Positions 25,869-36,117 of a stretch of 64,000 nucleotides of DNA are shown here, piece by piece (positions within the stretch are counted from its first letter, which is position 1; every line of letters starts with the position of its first letter). The stretch is from Steroidobacteraceae bacterium (lineage in GTDB: Bacteria > Pseudomonadota > Gammaproteobacteria > Steroidobacterales > Steroidobacteraceae). The notes beneath the pieces are model-generated. The model was not told the origin of the DNA, searched no databases, and saw nothing but the letters and a program-made list of their open reading frames with translations. The DNA lies in the NCBI GenBank assembly GCA_035534275.1, contig DATLSG010000016.1, positions 9,380 to 73,379 on the forward strand, read 5' to 3'. The translations under genes were made by a program, and so were the position numbers.

Positions 25869-26150
25869 CTAATTCGGCGGATTGCTCGATTGACCGTCGC
25901 GCGATTCGCCCTGGTGAGCCATCTGCACCTGCCTCTGCCGCATCTTCATTTCCCGCTTGCATTCCATTCTCATATGGCTCATTGACTCGCGGCCATTCTT
26001 CGCCTTCTGATGCTCCATGCAATGACTCATCATGTGGCGTTTCTGCATCATCGTCATGTGCGTCGCCGTCATGTTGGAATCACCGGCCACGGCGTAGCTG
26101 GCGAACGCCACCACGCCTGCCAATATCATCACAGCGGATCTATGGTTCAT
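25869..26150 (-). CDS. small secreted Met/His-rich protein (possible metal binding)
   Basis: 93 aa. Signal peptide MNHRSAVMILAGVVAFASYAVAG. The mature part is rich in M/H/K/R (THMTMMQKRHMMSHCMEHQ...SMSHMRMECKREMKM). GGAG lies 6 nt upstream of the ATG at 26150. Confidence 0.5.
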   Translation of the reverse strand: MNHRSAVMILAGVVAFASYAVAGDSNMTATHMTMMQKRHMMSHCMEHQKAKNGRESMSHMRMECKREMKMRQRQVQMAHQGESRDGQSSNPPN

Positions 26151-26364: not shown

Positions 26365-26706
26365 TTACGGAGCTTCTTCGGAATCCGGATGGATCACGCC
26401 AAATTGCGCTGGAACGCTGGCATAGAAGAGTCGAATTCGCTCACCCTGGATCAATTTCAGGAGCTTTTCGGCTTCTTCGCCCGTCACGATGAATTCCACC
26501 TCGATTGCCAGCGTGCCGGCAAGCTCGAAGAATTTCGCCTCGTGCACGCGATGGTGGCGCCCGAAGCCGGCCATGGCCTTGAACGCCGAACCGCCGCGAA
26601 CGCCTAGCTTATTGGCCTGAACCAGCAACCATTCCCAGGCCGGATATCCGTGGATGCGCTCGTCCTCATGCACGTAGAAGCGCAAATAGGAACCTTCCAT
26701 TGCCAT
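26365..26706 (-). CDS. DUF190 (PII-like) protein, a family commonly linked to crcB
   Basis: 113 aa. YLRFYVHEDERIHGYPAWEWLLVQANKLGVRGGSAFKAMAGFGRHHRVHE is a typical DUF190 core. Confidence 0.8.
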   Translation of the reverse strand: MAMEGSYLRFYVHEDERIHGYPAWEWLLVQANKLGVRGGSAFKAMAGFGRHHRVHEAKFFELAGTLAIEVEFIVTGEEAEKLLKLIQGERIRLFYASVPAQFGVIHPDSEEAP

Positions 26707-26980
26707 TCCCCCCTGTCTGAAGGACCGCTCGTCGACGCACCGCGATTCTGATCCAGGCGACGGTGCCGATGCCAGCGAAAAACACCAGCACCGATCCCGG
26801 CAAATGAATCGGGGCTTGCGCGACGATCCACAGGTGGCGGCCCAATTGCTGCAAGCCGACCGGTTCGACCGAGAAGGTCGAGAAGGCGGTCAGTCCGCTG
26901 CAAAAACCGGCGATCGCCAGCCAGCGGCAGTGCACCGCCAATGCCGGGAACGCGGCAAAGACGGCGACGATGACGCTCAA
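26666..26980 (-). CDS. crcB: CrcB/Fluc fluoride channel homologue, apparently lacking TM1 and most of TM2
   Basis: The Phe-box motif GFCSGLTAFSTFS (canonical GFxGGLTTFSTFS) sits only about 26 aa from the ORF start. TTG start overlaps the upstream stop (TTGA). The upstream sequence in this frame is charged and not TM-like. Confidence 0.7.
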   Translation of the reverse strand: MSVIVAVFAAFPALAVHCRWLAIAGFCSGLTAFSTFSVEPVGLQQLGRHLWIVAQAPIHLPGSVLVFFAGIGTVAWIRIAVRRRAVLQTGGNGNGRFLFALLRA

Positions 26981-28959
26981 CGCAAGCTCAGCGCGAGGAT
27001 GCCGATCAGCAGTGCGCCGATCATCGCCAAATAAAAGTTCAGATCGCCAGACTGCAGGGCGCCCAACCTGCGGGCGAGGCGCGACACTCCGCGCCGGATC
27101 GGCGTGAACACCAGCGGTCCGAAGACATCGGCGACGTCATGATTCAACTCGACCTTGCGGATGAAGTAGACGACCGTGCGGTGTTCGCGCGCGGTATCGA
27201 GTGTCGGGCGGTAGATGAAACTGTAGAACGTGCGCATCGCATTCGCGAACGTGAGCGACGTGGTCGCGGCGCGGTGCGCCTCTTCCCGCATTCCGCCGTA
27301 CCACACCCGCGCGCTGCGTACGGCGTGCCGCCGCAAATTGAGCAGCAGCAGCAGCGGCAGGATTGCCAGCAGCGGCGTGACCAGGATCAGTTTCGTCGGC
27401 GAGATGAACGCAAACGTATCGGTCAGCGGTACGAGCAGCCAGCCATGCGACATGGCACGCGCGCTGTGGGCGCCGAATTGCCGGAAGGTCGCCGCGTCGA
27501 GCGCGCCGAGCCAACGGGGCAAGCCCACGGCGGTGGCCGCCACGGCGAGCCCGAGGACTAAGGCGGCAAAGCCGTGACGAGCGCCGATGCGCGGTGCATC
27601 GCTCGGATCGGATGCGCCGAGCAGACCGATGCCGAACGCTTTGACGAAGGTCGCGAGCGCGACCGCGGCGGTGAGCGCGATGCCCGCACCGGCCAGGGCG
27701 AGCGTCACGCGACCGGCCACAGTGGTCAACTGGAAACCCTGAAACAGGGTCTGGAATGTGAACCACTCGGTGACGAAGCCGATCTGGGGCGGCATCGCCG
27801 CGAGACTCATGGCGGCGAAGAGGGCGCCGATCCCGAAGCCCCAGGGGGCCCGACGCAGCCAGCCGCGCTGTGCAATCCGGTAGCTGCCGCCCGCGGTAAA
27901 AACGCCGTCCGCGCAGACAAACAGGCCGCCCTTGGCGAGTGCGTGCCCGGCGAGGTGGAGCATGGCCACGGTCCAGGCGAGGCCCGCCAGCAGCCCTTGC
28001 CCGTCGGCGCGAAATATCAGGCACGCACCGAGTGCGGTCACGGCAATTCCGGCGTTCTCCGCGGAAGAAAAGGCCAGAAGACGGCGCCAGTCGTCCTGTT
28101 GCAAGGCGTAGAGGACCGCAAGAACCGCGGATAGCGCGCCCGCCGCCGTCACCAGGACGCCGAGAGTGAAGATCCCCGCGCCGTTGCCTGGAAGCCAATT
28201 GACCAGGCCGCGCGACAGCGCGAAGAATGCGGCATTCAGCACGACTCCCGATAAGATCGCGCCCGACGCGCCGCTGCCGGTCGCGTAGGCTCCCGGAAAC
28301 CACTCATAGAAGGGCAGCAAGCCGAGTTTTGCGCCGAAACCGATCAGCAGCAGGACGCCGATCCACACTTGCGCTCCCGCCGAAAGAGACGGCGCGACAG
28401 ACTTAAACCCGTCGAATGCGAGGCTGCCGCCGGCGTGACGCGCGAGCAGCAGCAACGCGAGCAGGATCGCGACCGCTCCCACCTCCAATAGCGCGAGCAT
28501 GAACATGGCGCTGGGCCCGGGGTGCGATGAGAGGCGTTCGGAGAGAATCATCACGGCGCCGCCGAAGCTCATCAATTCCCACGCGAGCAACAGCGAATAC
28601 CCGTCCTGCAGGCCGAACACGCCGACCGCGCCGAGCATCGACATCGTGGCACCGGCGATCCAACCCGATCGGCGCGTGCACACCGGCGTGTTCACCCACA
28701 CGGCGATTGCCGCCGGCGCCAGTCCGAACCCCATCAGCCACAGCGCACCGCTCGTGTAGTGCAGCTGCACTCGCTGGCCGGCGAGCGCGAACCCCAGCGG
28801 CCACGCCGCTGCGCCCTGCGGCAGGGCAATCACCGCGGCCGCGACTCCAACGGCAGCGCCGAGGCCCGCCAGCCATCGCGCCGGGGTATCGGCGCCGCCC
28901 ATGGCGAGCAACAGTCCGCCGAAAAGCGAAGCGGCGCTTATGGCGATGGCTTCAAGCAT
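26977..28959 (-). CDS. antiporter-like membrane subunit (HyfB/HycC/NuoL-like) of the Ehr-type complex
   Basis: 660 aa and polytopic. Proton-conducting-transporter core (WLPGAYATGSGASGAILSGVVLNAAFF..., AFSSAENAGI, HALAKGGLF). HyfB/HycC-like C-terminus LQSGDLNFYLAMIG. Confidence 0.85.
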   Translation of the reverse strand: MLEAIAISAASLFGGLLLAMGGADTPARWLAGLGAAVGVAAAVIALPQGAAAWPLGFALAGQRVQLHYTSGALWLMGFGLAPAAIAVWVNTPVCTRRSGWIAGATMSMLGAVGVFGLQDGYSLLLAWELMSFGGAVMILSERLSSHPGPSAMFMLALLEVGAVAILLALLLLARHAGGSLAFDGFKSVAPSLSAGAQVWIGVLLLIGFGAKLGLLPFYEWFPGAYATGSGASGAILSGVVLNAAFFALSRGLVNWLPGNGAGIFTLGVLVTAAGALSAVLAVLYALQQDDWRRLLAFSSAENAGIAVTALGACLIFRADGQGLLAGLAWTVAMLHLAGHALAKGGLFVCADGVFTAGGSYRIAQRGWLRRAPWGFGIGALFAAMSLAAMPPQIGFVTEWFTFQTLFQGFQLTTVAGRVTLALAGAGIALTAAVALATFVKAFGIGLLGASDPSDAPRIGARHGFAALVLGLAVAATAVGLPRWLGALDAATFRQFGAHSARAMSHGWLLVPLTDTFAFISPTKLILVTPLLAILPLLLLLNLRRHAVRSARVWYGGMREEAHRAATTSLTFANAMRTFYSFIYRPTLDTAREHRTVVYFIRKVELNHDVADVFGPLVFTPIRRGVSRLARRLGALQSGDLNFYLAMIGALLIGILALSLR

Positions 28960-29770
28960 GCGCCTCTCCCGGCGCGATCCGGCCGCCGCGGACGCGTTGC
29001 GGTGCGCGCTCCATGAGGATCAGCAGTGCGTGAATGATCGCGGCCGGGTTCGGCGGGCAGCCGGGCAGATATACATCCACCGGCAATTCACCGTCGAGTC
29101 CCCGGCCGCAGGCGTAGCCGCCGCCGTTCGTCCCGCCCGAGACCGCGCAGGTGCCGACCGCCATCACGAAGCGCGGTTCCGGCATCGCTGCGTACGTCTC
29201 ACTCAGCGGTCCGCGCATCGCGTAGGTCACGGGGCCGGTGACCAGCAGCAGGTCGGCGAAGCGCGGTGACGCGGTGAAGAAGACGCCCAGGCGGTGCAGG
29301 TTGTAGTACGGATTATTGAGCGCCTGCAATTCCGATTCGCAGCCGTTACAGGAACCGGCGTCGACGTGCCGTACGTGCAGGCTGCGGCCGAAAACACGCC
29401 GAATGCCGGACCTCAATGCCTCGCCGGCAGGCGATTCCACCGCTTCGTTCCACAGAAGATCTTCCCGCCGACGCACGCCGAACGCCCAGTCCGCGGAGCT
29501 CGTCAGCGCGCCGGTCGGGCAGACCTCGACGCACAACTGACAGGCCACGCAGCGCCCGTAGTCGAGCGCCACGCGCAAGGGCGATGCCGATTCGGTCAGC
29601 GTAATCGCCTGCGGCAGGCAGGCGTCGGCACAGCGCCGGCAGCCCTCTTCGCATTTGCTCGCCTCGAGGCGCGGCATGCCGAGTACTCCTTGCTGCCCGT
29701 CCGGGCCAGATCGAGGCCACGCAGTGCTCACCTTGCCTTGGGTCAAACCGAACAGCGTCCACAGGGGCAT
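28952..29770 (-). CDS. fused 2x[4Fe-4S] ferredoxin (HycF/NuoI-like) and NuoB/HycG-like small subunit
   Basis: N-terminal CEEGCRRCADAC and CVACQLCVEVCP. C-terminal part has VDAGSCNGCE, GTCAVSGG and LPGCPPNP, which are the four proximal-cluster cysteines. GGAGG lies upstream of the ATG at 29770. Confidence 0.85.
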   Translation of the reverse strand: MPLWTLFGLTQGKVSTAWPRSGPDGQQGVLGMPRLEASKCEEGCRRCADACLPQAITLTESASPLRVALDYGRCVACQLCVEVCPTGALTSSADWAFGVRRREDLLWNEAVESPAGEALRSGIRRVFGRSLHVRHVDAGSCNGCESELQALNNPYYNLHRLGVFFTASPRFADLLLVTGPVTYAMRGPLSETYAAMPEPRFVMAVGTCAVSGGTNGGGYACGRGLDGELPVDVYLPGCPPNPAAIIHALLILMERAPQRVRGGRIAPGEAHA

Positions 29771-29788: not shown

Positions 29789-31279
29789 CTATCGGTCGCA
29801 GCCGGCTATCGTGAGGCCGAAACTCGCCTCATTGATTGCGTAATCCATCATGTTGCTCTCGTGTACAGTGAACGCGAACACCCGCCAGTTCGAAAAGCTC
29901 GGGGATTTGATCTTGACCCGTGCCAGGCGCCCGCGGCCATCGACATGCACCGAGTAGTACAGAGAGCCGCGCGGCGATTCGCACCAGCCGATGCCCTCGG
30001 CGCCCGGTGCGACCTCACACACGCTGCGGATCGGACCGTCGGGCAGGGATTCCAGCGCACGTTCGATGAGCCGGACGCTGCGATGTATTTCGGCGATGCG
30101 TACCTGCTGGCGTGCGTGGGCGTCGCCGGCCTGCCGCACGGCGATCTCGACCGGCAACTGCGGATACGCGGCGTACGGTTGGTCCTGGCGCAGGTCGCGC
30201 TCGAGCCCCGAGGCGCGCTCGACCGGACCGGTGGCGCCTTGGTCGAACGCGAGCTTGCGGCTGAGTACGCCGGTCGTGATGAGCCGATCGAGGTGCGACG
30301 ACGTCGACTCGAGCATCTCGGCGTACGCGCCGAGTTCGGCATCCAGCGGGCCCAGGGCATCGAGCAAACCCGCGAGCCGCGGCATGCGCCGCAATCCGCC
30401 GGGAGCAATCAGGCCGCGCAGCAGACGGTTGCCGGTCGCGCGGCCGTTGATCTGCTTCGCGAGCTCCTCGAGGTACTTGCCTTCGGCTTCGCCGACTTTG
30501 AGCGTGGTCGCATGACATAGATGGCCAAGGTAATGCAGGTGGTTGTAGAGTCGCTCGAGCTCGGCGAGCAGCACACGCAGCCAGCGTGCGCGCGCGGGCA
30601 CCGCGCAGCCCGCCGCCGATTCGAGCGCCTGGCAATAGGCGAGCGCATGGGCGACGCTGCCGACCCCGGATACGCGCTCGGCGAGCACCGCGCCGAGCTC
30701 GGGCGCGAGTCCCTCGAATCGCAGCTCCATGCCGCGGTGCTTGAAGAATAGCTGCGGGTGGTAGTGAACGATGGCTTCGCCGAGATAATAGAAATCGAAC
30801 TGCGCGGACTCGACTACGTCGGCGCGCACCGGGCCGAACGGCAGTATCTGCACCTCGCCCGAGGTTCGGCCGGCAATTTCCGGCAGAGGCGGCGGCGCCG
30901 GCGTGTAGCGCACGGTGGCCCGTGAGCCGGGCAGCAAAGGCGGGACTGAGGCCTGCGCGCCCGGCAGAAGCACGAGCGGTCTTGGCTCCGGCAGGTTTTC
31001 AAAATGCAGGCCGCACAGATCGGTGACTTCCCGCTCGTACCACGACAGCAGCGGCGCGATCGCGGCGAGACTGGGTGTCCCCTCCGGACCCGGACGGCAA
31101 CGCCAGATCCGCATCGCTTGCGTGCCGCGATGAATCAGGTACCGGAGCTCCGGCGTCCCGGCCTCGCGGTCCGGGAACCAGGCATAGAGCATCTGCAGGC
31201 GTTCGCCGGCGCCGACCGCGTTCTCGCAGCGCCGCTGCAGATCCGCCACCGCCACGTCTTCGAGTTGCGGCGCGCTCAT
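29789..31279 (-). CDS. NuoC-NuoD/HycE-like 'large subunit' lacking the [NiFe] cysteine ligands (Ehr-type)
   Basis: 496 aa from the ATG at 31279, which overlaps the upstream stop as ATGA. L1 motif is ERVSGVGSVAH versus hydrogenase R-x-C-G-x-C-x-x-x-H. The C-terminus is GLTIAGCDR-stop versus D-P-C-x-x-C-x-x-R. The 881-aa track ORF is an upstream extension overlapping the previous gene. Confidence 0.85.
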   Translation of the reverse strand: MSAPQLEDVAVADLQRRCENAVGAGERLQMLYAWFPDREAGTPELRYLIHRGTQAMRIWRCRPGPEGTPSLAAIAPLLSWYEREVTDLCGLHFENLPEPRPLVLLPGAQASVPPLLPGSRATVRYTPAPPPLPEIAGRTSGEVQILPFGPVRADVVESAQFDFYYLGEAIVHYHPQLFFKHRGMELRFEGLAPELGAVLAERVSGVGSVAHALAYCQALESAAGCAVPARARWLRVLLAELERLYNHLHYLGHLCHATTLKVGEAEGKYLEELAKQINGRATGNRLLRGLIAPGGLRRMPRLAGLLDALGPLDAELGAYAEMLESTSSHLDRLITTGVLSRKLAFDQGATGPVERASGLERDLRQDQPYAAYPQLPVEIAVRQAGDAHARQQVRIAEIHRSVRLIERALESLPDGPIRSVCEVAPGAEGIGWCESPRGSLYYSVHVDGRGRLARVKIKSPSFSNWRVFAFTVHESNMMDYAINEASFGLTIAGCDR

Positions 31280-33480: not shown

Positions 33481-34422
33481 TCAACGCAATTGGTTGGCGA
33501 CGATCGCCAGCACCGCAAGCAGGAAAGAGGCGGCCAACGGCTCCTGATAGCGGAAATAGCGCAACCGCGACTGGACCGTCTCGACGAACACGACCGCGAG
33601 TGCGACGAACGAGAACTTGCCGAGCAACGCCGCGGCGGCGCCGACGGCGCCGATCGCGGAGCCGTGGTGCGACAGCCACCAGGGGAGCAGGAGCACGTTG
33701 CAGAAGATCGTATAAAGGATGAACTGCTTCATCATGGCGGCCCACTTCAGCAGTGCGAGCAGCGGTCCCGAGTATTCCAATATGCGCGCCTCGTCGATCA
33801 TGTAGACCTCGATGTGCGTGCTGGAGTGGATCGGCAGGCGGTCGGTCTCCACGAGCAGCAAAATGAAAAAGGCCGCCACCAGGAACAGGTGCGCGGGACC
33901 CCAATAGACCGCGGGTTGCCCGGCCAGAAGGTGGTTCACGACGAACGGCAACATGGCCTTGGCGAGCAGGGTGATGCCGACGAAGACCAGGATCAGGGTG
34001 GGTTCGGCCAGGATCCCGAGCATCACGGCACGCGATGCGCCAATGCCGCCATATGCGCCGCCGGAATCCAATCCGGCAAGCGTGATCATGAACGAACCGA
34101 GCGTCAGGATGAACCCGCCACCAAGGATGTCGCCCATGTCGGACAAGGGCAGCGGATAGTCGGTCAACACGGGGATCAGGATCGGCACCGTCAGCATGCA
34201 GGTGAACGCGACGACCGGCGCGATCCAATAGATGAAGCTCGCCGTCTCCGGGACGACCGCTTGCTTATGCAACAGCTTCCACAGGTCGCGGTACGGCTGC
34301 AGGATCCCGGGACCCTGCGCGCGCTGCACGCGCTCCTCCCACTGCAGGATCACTCCCTGCAGCAGTGGCGCGAGCAGCATCACGCTCAGTACTTGGGCGA
34401 TTTGCAGCAGGATGTCGCGCAT
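33481..34422 (-). CDS. HycD/HyfC/NuoH-like membrane subunit
   Basis: 313 aa from the ATG at 34422. MRDILLQIAQVLSVMLLAPLLQGVILQWEERVQRAQGPGILQPYRDLWKLLHK is the characteristic HycD/NuoH N-terminus. AGGA lies about 10 nt upstream. Confidence 0.85.
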   Translation of the reverse strand: MRDILLQIAQVLSVMLLAPLLQGVILQWEERVQRAQGPGILQPYRDLWKLLHKQAVVPETASFIYWIAPVVAFTCMLTVPILIPVLTDYPLPLSDMGDILGGGFILTLGSFMITLAGLDSGGAYGGIGASRAVMLGILAEPTLILVFVGITLLAKAMLPFVVNHLLAGQPAVYWGPAHLFLVAAFFILLLVETDRLPIHSSTHIEVYMIDEARILEYSGPLLALLKWAAMMKQFILYTIFCNVLLLPWWLSHHGSAIGAVGAAAALLGKFSFVALAVVFVETVQSRLRYFRYQEPLAASFLLAVLAIVANQLR

Positions 34423-34532: not shown

Positions 34533-34540
34533 CGGATTAT

Positions 34541-34593
34541 GGTAGGCATCATCGGCCGAGAATCCGGCGGTTCGAGGAGGAATGCCATCTCCC
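34541..34593 (-). promoter_or_regulatory. fluoride riboswitch (crcB RNA motif) aptamer
   Basis: Minus-strand RNA is GGGAGAUGGCAUUCCUCCUCGAACCGCCGGAUUCUCGGCCGAUGAUGCCUACC. P1 is GGAG/CUCC around AUGGCAUU. The conserved GAACCGCC is present. P3 is GCCG-GAUUCU-CGGC. The conserved GAUGAUGCCUAC is present. The pseudoknot is GGCAU:AUGCC. Confidence 0.85.
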
Positions 34594-34601
34594 GCGGATT
34601 C

Positions 34602-34630
34602 AATATACTAGCTGCGACAGAGCGCGGCAA
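34602..34630 (-). promoter_or_regulatory. sigma-70-like promoter driving the riboswitch leader
   Basis: On the minus strand, TTGCCG (34630-34625), a 17 nt spacer, then TATATT (34607-34602). The -10 ends 8 nt before the first aptamer G. Confidence 0.55.

Positions 34631-34710: not shown

Positions 34711-36117
<1,407 letters not shown>

Follow-up and report, generated by a model that had tools for sequence, protein, structure and literature searches.

Ehr complexes are relatives of the group 4 [NiFe]-hydrogenases that lack the Ni-Fe ligands (Marreiros et al. 2013, as used in PMC6349859; PMC10284858). They have been known from genomes for more than 10 years without a substrate, an inducer or a phenotype. 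The MBS/Mbx complex of P. furiosus is derived from a hydrogenase and no longer makes H2 (PMC6349859). In a separate line of work, genes named 'formate hydrogen lyase' have been listed since 2012 among those most commonly linked to fluoride riboswitches (PMC11139923, summarising Baker et al. 2012), Na+/H+ antiporters being the second commonest gene class, and the riboswitch-linked genes have been taken as a true formate hydrogenlyase (FHL) and as the sign of a fermentative shift (PMC11139923). Fluoride accumulates in the manner of a weak acid: the entry of HF lowers both the cytoplasmic pH and the proton-motive force (PMF), and export by Fluc and by CLC-F needs that same force (PMC11139923). 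We found, in open-access full texts, no paper that identifies the riboswitch-linked FHL genes as an Ehr devoid of Ni-Fe ligands. Here we analysed a stretch of 64,000 nucleotides (the window) from a Steroidobacteraceae bacterium, a member of the Gammaproteobacteria (assembly GCA_035534275.1, contig DATLSG010000016.1, positions 9,380 to 73,379, forward strand), and in particular a gene for a hydrogenase-like large subunit, called the query below. It lies in an operon headed by a fluoride riboswitch, and the product of this operon is predicted to be an Ehr-type membrane complex of six subunits that resembles complex I and is not a hydrogenase.

We assigned the large subunit by domain, sequence and fold. 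Pfam matches its NuoC-like part to Complex1_30kDa (residues 65-108) and the remainder to the N-terminus of NiFeSe_Hases (residues 182-255) and to Complex1_49kDa. Among proteins of solved structure, its best sequence relative is HycE of E. coli (7z0s_E, E 4.5e-51), followed by MbhL of P. furiosus (E 6.2e-36) and then by NuoD/Nqo4 proteins. When an AlphaFold2 model (confidence score pLDDT 72.5, pTM 0.80) was submitted to Foldseek, HycE was again the top match (TM-score 0.74), with fused NuoCD proteins next. The three approaches agree on the HycE-like architecture of fused NuoC and NuoD domains that the sequence-only reading had proposed. By homology and fold the protein is a group 4 large subunit; it has neither the Ni-Fe ligands of a hydrogenase nor linked maturation genes.

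Alignment with the true hyc, hyf and nuo sequences of E. coli reveals what has become of the metal site. The N-terminal motif of the query reads ERVSGVGSVAH and its C-terminus ASFGLTIAGCDR-stop, where HycE has DRVCGICGFAH and GSLDPCYSCTDR followed by a tail of 32 residues, and E. coli NuoCD has DRIEYLGGCVNE and GSIDFVMSDVDR-stop. The query thus departs from both hydrogenase signatures, from L1 (R-x-C-G-x-C-x-x-x-H) in the N-terminal motif and from L2 (D-P-C-x-x-C-x-x-R/H) by reading GLTIAGCDR where HycE reads DPCYSCTDR. The four positions that ligate Ni-Fe are occupied by Ser204, Gly207, Thr490 and Gly493, and the single Cys, Cys494, directly follows the last of these, one residue out of register. 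The replacement of all four ligands and the displaced Cys had both been noticed by the sequence-only reading, which quoted the query motif correctly and erred in giving the HycE motif with ER, instead of DR, at its start. It was also right that no C-terminal extension is available for HycI-type processing, since the protein stops at the very Arg after which HycE is cleaved; some true group 4 enzymes likewise have no such extension. The -DR terminus, which had been taken as NuoD-like, is present but does not discriminate, because Cys-bearing relatives resembling group 4f (P0150, ...ELCYSCCDR-stop) end in the same way.

The site does not resemble a complex I quinone site either. The quinone-binding Tyr of NuoCD and of T. 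thermophilus Nqo4 (RMDYLH; Tyr87) aligns with Gly205, as the sequence-only reading had held for NuoD, while Nqo4 His38 corresponds to Val156 and Nqo4 His34 to Arg152. With the ligand Cys and the equivalents of the Tyr and of His38 all missing, the pocket fits neither a NiFe site nor a canonical quinone site, and a group-4-related large subunit without Ni-Fe ligands is what the published definition of Ehr describes (PMC6349859; PMC10284858); on both points the earlier assignment holds. The Glu of the hydrogenase proton relay is retained as Glu157, and the adjacent His is replaced by Arg.

Neither misaligned cysteines nor an artefact of the sequence accounts for these changes: the Cys are truly absent and the substitutions are conserved in orthologues. 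An identical protein is found on 6 contigs from several assemblies, under the NCBI name 'nickel-dependent hydrogenase large subunit [Steroidobacteraceae bacterium]'; the same motifs recur in the 120 closest homologues (66-86% identity), and relatives occur in 434 genomes in a scan that counted one genome per species. Among 84 large-subunit orthologues translated from fetched loci, Ser204 is kept in 84/84, Gly207 in 75/84, Thr490 in 79/84, Gly493 in 83/84, Cys494 in 81/84, Arg152 in 84/84 and Glu157 in 83/84. At least 97% conservation is reached at 149 of the 496 positions, the former active-site motifs included, and the segments of the former active site rank among the most conserved parts of the subunit. 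Hence the site has been remodelled rather than abandoned. The signature of the clade is GPVR[AG]DVxES, ERVSG[VI]GSVAH and AGCDR-stop, and as read from the alignments the Ni-Fe site is replaced by a different, strictly conserved pocket comprising Arg152, Glu157, Ser204, Gly205, Gly207, Ser208, His211, Thr490, Gly493, Cys494, Asp495 and Arg496.

The large subunit is the product of the fourth of six genes, all on one strand (Table 1); its ATG lies at 31279 and overlaps by 4 nt with the stop of the preceding gene. The order of the six genes is identical in every fetched locus that is long enough, the NuoH-like gene coming first in all of them. All the partners expected of an Ehr complex, that is, a NuoB-like Fe-S subunit, a NuoH-like subunit and Mrp-type antiporter-like subunits, are encoded in the operon. 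The Fe-S subunit is a fusion whose best solved relatives are MbhJ and HycG. Its twelve predicted cluster ligands (Cys40/44/47/51, Cys74/77/80/84 and Cys141/144/208/238) are invariant in 81/81 orthologues. A thirteenth Cys, Cys221 (window about 29108-29110), lies in the NuoB-like domain and is kept in 61/81 orthologues, the others having Ser or Ala; it is not a cluster ligand. The proximal motif SCNGCE has the CxxC spacing of the hydrogenase type, as in MbhJ and HycG, and mitochondrial PSST aligns with it from the second Cys only; in complex I, NuoB ligates the terminal cluster N2 by a tandem Cys (CC) motif. In the membrane arm, both antiporter-like subunits keep the Glu of transmembrane helix (TM) 5, the Lys of TM7 and the Glu of TM12, that is, three of the four key residues of the Mrp type (Glu-TM5, Lys-TM7, Lys-TM8 and Lys/Glu-TM12). 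It is thus predicted that both the pump-type membrane arm and the three-cluster [4Fe-4S] wire to the pocket are intact.

None of the six genes of the operon matches NuoE, NuoF, NuoG or NuoA; the HyfE-like subunit may stand in for NuoJ/K. No formate dehydrogenase (FdhF) and no separate ferredoxin subunit of the HycB/HyfA type is encoded within +/-10 kb, tblastn matches to HycB being confined to the ferredoxin part of the fused small subunit. A search limited to the window and 85 related loci, 1.36 Mb overall, found no homologue of HycI, HycH, HypA or HypB. The gene calls of public assemblies agree with the NuoH-like gene of the window. One public assembly (ERZ27256814; L081 6858-7799, equal to window 33481-34422) has this gene split, probably by an assembly or strain frameshift; it is intact in the window and in a second assembly.

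Table 1. Features of the operon and of its surroundings in the window; all lie on the reverse strand and are given in the direction of transcription.
Feature	Position	Strand	Basis
Enolase, directly upstream of the operon	34711..36033	(-)	Pfam Enolase_N + Enolase_C; no aptamer of its own here
Promoter, sigma-70-like, TTGCCG-17-TATATT, abutting the aptamer 5' end	34602..34630	(-)	Consensus pattern match only
Fluoride riboswitch aptamer (crcB RNA motif, RF01734), operon leader	34536..34601	(-)	Rfam 51.5 bits, E 2.3e-11
Gene 1, NuoH/HyfC/HycD-like membrane subunit, 313 aa as called (frame open up to 34524)	33481..34422	(-)	Pfam NADHdh 3.8e-33
Gene 2, HyfE-like small membrane subunit, 226 aa	32796..33476	(-)	NCBIfam 'hydrogenase 4 membrane subunit' PRK11492, 6.8e-15, under curated cut-off; conserved position
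Gene 3, HyfF/NuoM/N-like antiporter-like subunit, about 506 aa	31276..32799	(-)	Pfam Proton_antipo_M 1.4e-51; top NCBIfam 'hydrogenase 4 subunit F'
Gene 4, large subunit, fused NuoC-like + NuoD/HycE-like, without Ni-Fe ligand Cys, 496 aa	29789..31279	(-)	Pfam, structure-database search, alignment
Gene 5, 2x[4Fe-4S] HycF/NuoI-like domain fused to HycG/MbhJ/NuoB-like small subunit	28952..29770	(-)	Pfam Fer4_7 + Oxidored_q6
Gene 6, HyfB/NuoL-like antiporter-like subunit, 660 aa	26977..28959	(-)	Pfam Proton_antipo_M; top NCBIfam 'hydrogenase 4 subunit B'
Degraded crcB (Fluc fluoride channel) remnant	26666..26980	(-)	Pfam CRCB profile matched at positions 37-103 only
DUF190 (COG1993) protein, frequent crcB companion	26365..26700	(-)	Pfam DUF190 3.1e-18

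The operon is preceded by a fluoride riboswitch aptamer, which sits between the enolase gene and the first operon gene (start 34422), on the same strand as the operon. It is the sole Rfam match in the whole window, spans the full length of the model and exceeds the gathering score of 34; no second riboswitch was detected between 25500 and 37500, even at E<=1. The promoter consensus scan yielded 2 sites where 0.1 were expected in shuffled sequences. We established that the aptamer is a constant companion of the operon. Using the Rfam model at its gathering threshold, we found it at the same relative position in 8/8 diverse related loci, which span Gamma-, Beta- and Alphaproteobacteria as well as Acidobacteriaceae, together with 13 further aptamers nearby. 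A covariance model of our own (R1), built from 21 proteobacterial aptamers found with the Rfam model, detected 150 aptamers across 80 loci and the window. In each locus whose upstream sequence reaches 3.7 kb or more (67/67), an aptamer lies on the same strand, 3188-3650 nt (median 3262) ahead of the start of the large-subunit gene, and two loci with shorter upstream sequence carry one as well, which brings the total to 69/69 informative loci; near-duplicate loci (L023/L025 and L015/L016) are included in this count, so that the independent number is slightly below 69. The association extends to distant relatives: a locus with 47% identity (L086) has the upstream aptamer and a convergent, riboswitch-led crcB-DUF190-crcB array, one with 42% identity (L172) has an aptamer of 43 bits with the Rfam model, and one with 41% identity (L171) scores 32.3 bits, slightly under the threshold, its operon being followed by genes for Usp, a pyrophosphatase, an MFS protein and CrcB.

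As to the near-duplicates, L023 and L025 (Pollutimonas bauzanensis) are a 17.5-kb locus that is identical throughout on two contigs of one assembly, by duplication or assembly redundancy, and L015 and L016, from two metagenome-assembled genomes (MAGs), gave the same hit coordinates and scores in every scan.

We then asked whether the fluoride link belongs to Ehr in general. Three classes can be told apart by a loop motif, the L1 motif and the C-terminus: the query clade (GPVR..V.ES; ERVSG..; ..AG[C]DR), another Cys-less Ehr clade (GPxHAGxIEP; ERxSGD..; KSFNLSYSGNDL) and a Cys-bearing 4f-like class (GPIHAGIIEP; ERICGVC..; ..ELCYSCxDR). As a control we took 80 metagenome loci of the other Cys-less clade, and R1, a model less sensitive on divergent hosts, detected no aptamer in any of them. 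The limit of R1 is apparent from L172, which scored 16.5 bits with it against 43 with the Rfam model, and from L171, which it missed; 19 control loci were therefore re-scanned with Rfam's own model, again with no aptamer in 278 kb, each locus offering at least 7 kb of upstream sequence. In a rough neighbour-joining tree of 119 sequences, the Arg152-type sequences form a clade with 49 leaves, which includes no member with three or more ligand Cys. The aptamer being present in query-clade loci and absent from the control clade, the fluoride link is a property of the clade and not general to Ehr. The query clade is thus a distinct variant of Ehr, with a conserved pocket of its own, a fused electron-transfer subunit and a fluoride-riboswitch leader; with hundreds of orthologues it is not unique to this bacterium. 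In one metagenome locus of the control clade, the Ehr operon has group II intron domains next to it (L099, 10720-13931; RF02001 twice, RF00029 once).

Taken together, these data lead us to favour, with a probability of roughly 55%, a function as a fluoride-induced, non-hydrogenase, redox-driven ion pump that would sustain the PMF and the cytoplasmic pH while HF and F- cycle across the membrane. Rising cytoplasmic fluoride, typically from HF diffusing in at low external pH, would switch the operon on through the riboswitch. Electrons would enter from a soluble low-potential donor, most likely a ferredoxin-type protein, via the HycF-like domain and would pass to an acceptor at the remodelled pocket, possibly a quinone bound in a non-canonical way. 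The redox energy would be spent on expelling protons or another cation, and this pumping would make good the PMF and the cytoplasmic alkalinity lost through the entry of HF and the exit of F- by way of Fluc or CLC-F.

Several observations weigh against the redox-driven pump. The operon encodes no redox donor or acceptor, so that the redox reaction is one we wholly infer. The Tyr and His that bind quinone in complex I are absent from the pocket, and together with the hydrogenase-type CxxC in place of the tandem Cys of complex I this means that a canonical quinone reductase is not indicated. The AlphaFold2 model reproduces the fold, but its pLDDT falls below 50 at residues 130-180 and 462-496, exactly at the pocket, and we therefore drew nothing from it about the cavity. 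In both antiporter-like subunits, the alignment places an Asn where the central Lys of TM8 would be expected, and E. coli HyfF likewise has Asn there. Finally, riboswitch control of the operon is itself read from the sequence, and a simple scan detected no intrinsic terminator after the aptamer.

The pocket could conceivably host a new redox chemistry, with a low-potential non-quinone acceptor or a fluoride-linked substrate and with pumping as a secondary matter, in which case a new site for catalysis or anion binding would be made up of Arg152, Glu157, Ser204, Thr490 and Cys494. Such chemistry would suit a pocket that is more conserved than any other part of the protein, that is unlike the solutions of both hydrogenase and complex I, and that keeps the relay Glu in 83/84 orthologues next to a His changed to Arg in 84/84. 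It would also suit the CxxC of the proximal cluster, which is like that of MbhJ and HycG, a hydrogenase-type motif that goes with low-potential chemistry. On the other hand, the gene neighbourhood yields no candidate substrate, no cofactor-maturation genes are linked to the operon in the window or the 85 loci, and the structural model is unreliable in the pocket; we regard the proposal as possible but unlikely. It is likewise doubtful, though worth stating, that the fluoride-linked clade is a stress-response respiratory machine whose pocket has been re-purposed for new chemistry or sensing, for instance as a pump coupled to or gated by HF/F-, or as one that uses an unrecognised acceptor. If that were true, the clade would provide the first case of an Ehr whose inducer and physiological role are defined, and a new interpretation would be needed for the 'formate hydrogen lyase' arm of the fluoride response. 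We judge rather improbable a secondary, Mrp-like cation/proton antiporter serving pH homeostasis, in which the peripheral arm and its Fe-S clusters would be structural or regulatory. Mrp antiporters function without any peripheral arm, and here about 770 peripheral-arm residues are under strong purifying selection, including the 12 cluster ligands (81/81) and the pocket; such an antiporter would nevertheless agree with a membrane arm composed of Mrp-type antiporter-like subunits, with an operon devoid of a donor or acceptor module and with the rank of Na+/H+ antiporters among fluoride-riboswitch genes (PMC11139923).

The names in current use point elsewhere. Databases call the large subunit 'nickel-dependent hydrogenase large subunit' or 'formate hydrogenlyase subunit 5', HycE is its closest solved relative, and the review of riboswitch-linked genes reads them in the same way (PMC11139923), all of which would be expected of a genuine FHL or group 4 [NiFe]-hydrogenase producing H2 by fermentation under fluoride stress. 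This is very improbable for a protein with zero of the four metal-ligating Cys, a state conserved clade-wide, that has no formate dehydrogenase, HycI or Hyp genes nearby and whose hosts, to judge their lifestyle by taxonomy, are mostly aerobic soil bacteria. That the gene is a decaying pseudogene, or that the changes come from errors of assembly or sequencing, has next to no probability and was rejected: the adjacent crcB is truly degraded in the source genome and one public assembly has the NuoH-like gene split, but the large-subunit reading frame is intact, the identical protein stands on 6 contigs, hundreds of orthologues share the same substitutions and 30% of the positions are near-invariant. 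The redox-driven pump thus remains our preferred explanation, and the genes listed as 'formate hydrogen lyase' in surveys of fluoride riboswitches are most likely Ehr complexes of the query type. As such a complex cannot make H2 and has no formate dehydrogenase, its presence is no sign of a fermentative shift; more probably, it supports the PMF that fluoride export consumes.

The surroundings of the operon agree with a fluoride regulon. Enolase is a fluoride-sensitive enzyme and a common member of such regulons; the copy in the window may be a second, fluoride-related one, and in 7 related loci the enolase gene stands directly behind a riboswitch. The other riboswitch-led neighbours in related loci are dynamin (8), a MutS-like protein (8), CrcB (6) and CLC (3). 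Within 8 kb of the operon, CrcB is encoded in 34/57 and DUF190 in 44/57 long related loci. In the window, the crcB remnant covers no more than the C-terminal two thirds of the CRCB profile and does not have the TM1-TM2 region that L003 retains in its intact orthologue of 130 aa; its TTFSTFS motif has one Thr changed, its frame continues into DUF190 and public gene calls skip it. A fusion or frameshift of crcB with the HyfB-like gene was considered and rejected, the upstream frame not being CrcB-like. Downstream of DUF190 is encoded a small protein (25869-26150, reverse strand) that is predicted to be secreted, is rich in Met and His (...HMTMMQKRHMMSHCMEH...) and has no Pfam match.

The operon is also carried by plasmids. 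Copies with about 55% identity are found on a conjugative 134-kb plasmid of B. cenocepacia, on a B. multivorans plasmid and on plasmid records of about 1.8 Mb in two Caballeronia strains. On the B. cenocepacia plasmid, the genes of the island are, in order, MutS, dynamin, pyrophosphatase, HAD, DUF190, the six-gene operon, a hypothetical gene, crcB, histidine phosphatase and CLC channel. This island (L169; plasmid NZ_CP073671.1, 92094-113578), which comes from a blood isolate, has seven fluoride riboswitches in 21.5 kb; they lead the Ehr operon, a dynamin operon, the CLC channel, crcB, HAD-pyrophosphatase and two hypothetical genes. It looks like a mobile fluoride-resistance island. Two other proteins recur next to the operon under riboswitches of their own. 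In Steroidobacteraceae-type loci (L006:3650-4456(-), and also L001, L005, L009, L010, L015, L019, L020, L027 and L031), one of them is a P-loop protein of about 260-285 aa, encoded divergently from the Ehr operon, with a weak match to AAA_22 as its sole Pfam signal. The other, in Burkholderia (L169:14498-15610(-) and L170:14265-15593(-)), is a hypothetical protein without a Pfam match; it has about 370-440 aa and its gene is convergent with the HyfB-like one. The isolate names of many source MAGs suggest peat, palsa and other soils, where low pH would worsen fluoride toxicity.

The fluoride riboswitch is the first clear physiological cue for the enigmatic Ehr class, and it turns 'substrate unknown' into a role that can be tested: the query clade supplies both the fluoride cue and a coherent regulon. 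Tractable hosts exist, namely the plasmids of Burkholderia cenocepacia and B. multivorans, Pollutimonas, Candidimonas and Mesorhizobium montanum. The re-reading of 'formate hydrogen lyase' also bears on the engineering of fluoride tolerance into strains that degrade organofluorines, and the clade as a whole is a natural experiment on the remodelling of a hydrogenase-to-complex-I active site. A preprint on Methylocystis sumavensis describes a six-gene complex assigned to 'group 4f' (ehfA-F), with an AARVS motif, a 16-23-fold induction at pH 5 and no H2 detected (10.1101/2025.08.29.672306). This motif fits the other Ehr clade (P0270-type), and the complex may lend indirect support only, to a role of Ehr in acid or pH homeostasis. 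It may itself be a Cys-less Ehr of that other clade; if so, HydDB-style classification labels Ehr proteins as hydrogenases.

The complex shares features with several known systems. E. coli FHL is regulated by formate and FhlA, whereas a fluoride riboswitch heads the query operon. The query membrane subunits best match HyfB, HyfC, HyfE and HyfF of E. coli FHL (Hyd-3 HycE 7z0s, Hyd-4/Hyf), but, unlike that system, the query has no Ni-Fe site, 32-residue tail, FdhF, HycB/HyfA, HyfD, HycH or HycI, and its HycF and HycG equivalents are fused. The nearest Cys-bearing relatives are the group 4f [NiFe]-hydrogenases (putative Ehf, HydDB), which, at 34-40% identity, belong to the same length class, end in -DR and have no extension, but hold all four Cys (ERICGVC..., ...ELCYSCCDR). 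Like the Q-module of complex I and ferredoxin-dependent NDH-1, the query has fused C and D domains as in NuoCD, a -DR end, a three-cluster wire and an L-shaped set of subunits; unlike complex I, it has Gly205 and Val156 for Tyr87 and His38 and CxxC for the tandem Cys, it lacks NuoEFG and NuoA, and its antiporter-like subunits number only two. Its membrane arm is made of antiporter-like subunits as in Mrp, which itself has no peripheral arm. As a hydrogenase-derived complex that does not make H2, it resembles MBS/Mbx, although MbsL is a weak match (6u8y_L, E 1.2e-24), well below HycE. Its leader (RF01734) and its neighbours (crcB, CLC-F-type channel, enolase, pyrophosphatase, HAD, MutS-like protein, dynamin and DUF190, many of them riboswitch-led) are those of a fluoride regulon. 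Its composition is that of Ehr complexes, in which NuoB-like Fe-S, NuoH-like and Mrp-type antiporter-like subunits accompany a Cys-less large subunit, and among these the query clade stands apart by its own pocket signature, its fused HycF-/HycG-like subunit and its fluoride riboswitch leader.

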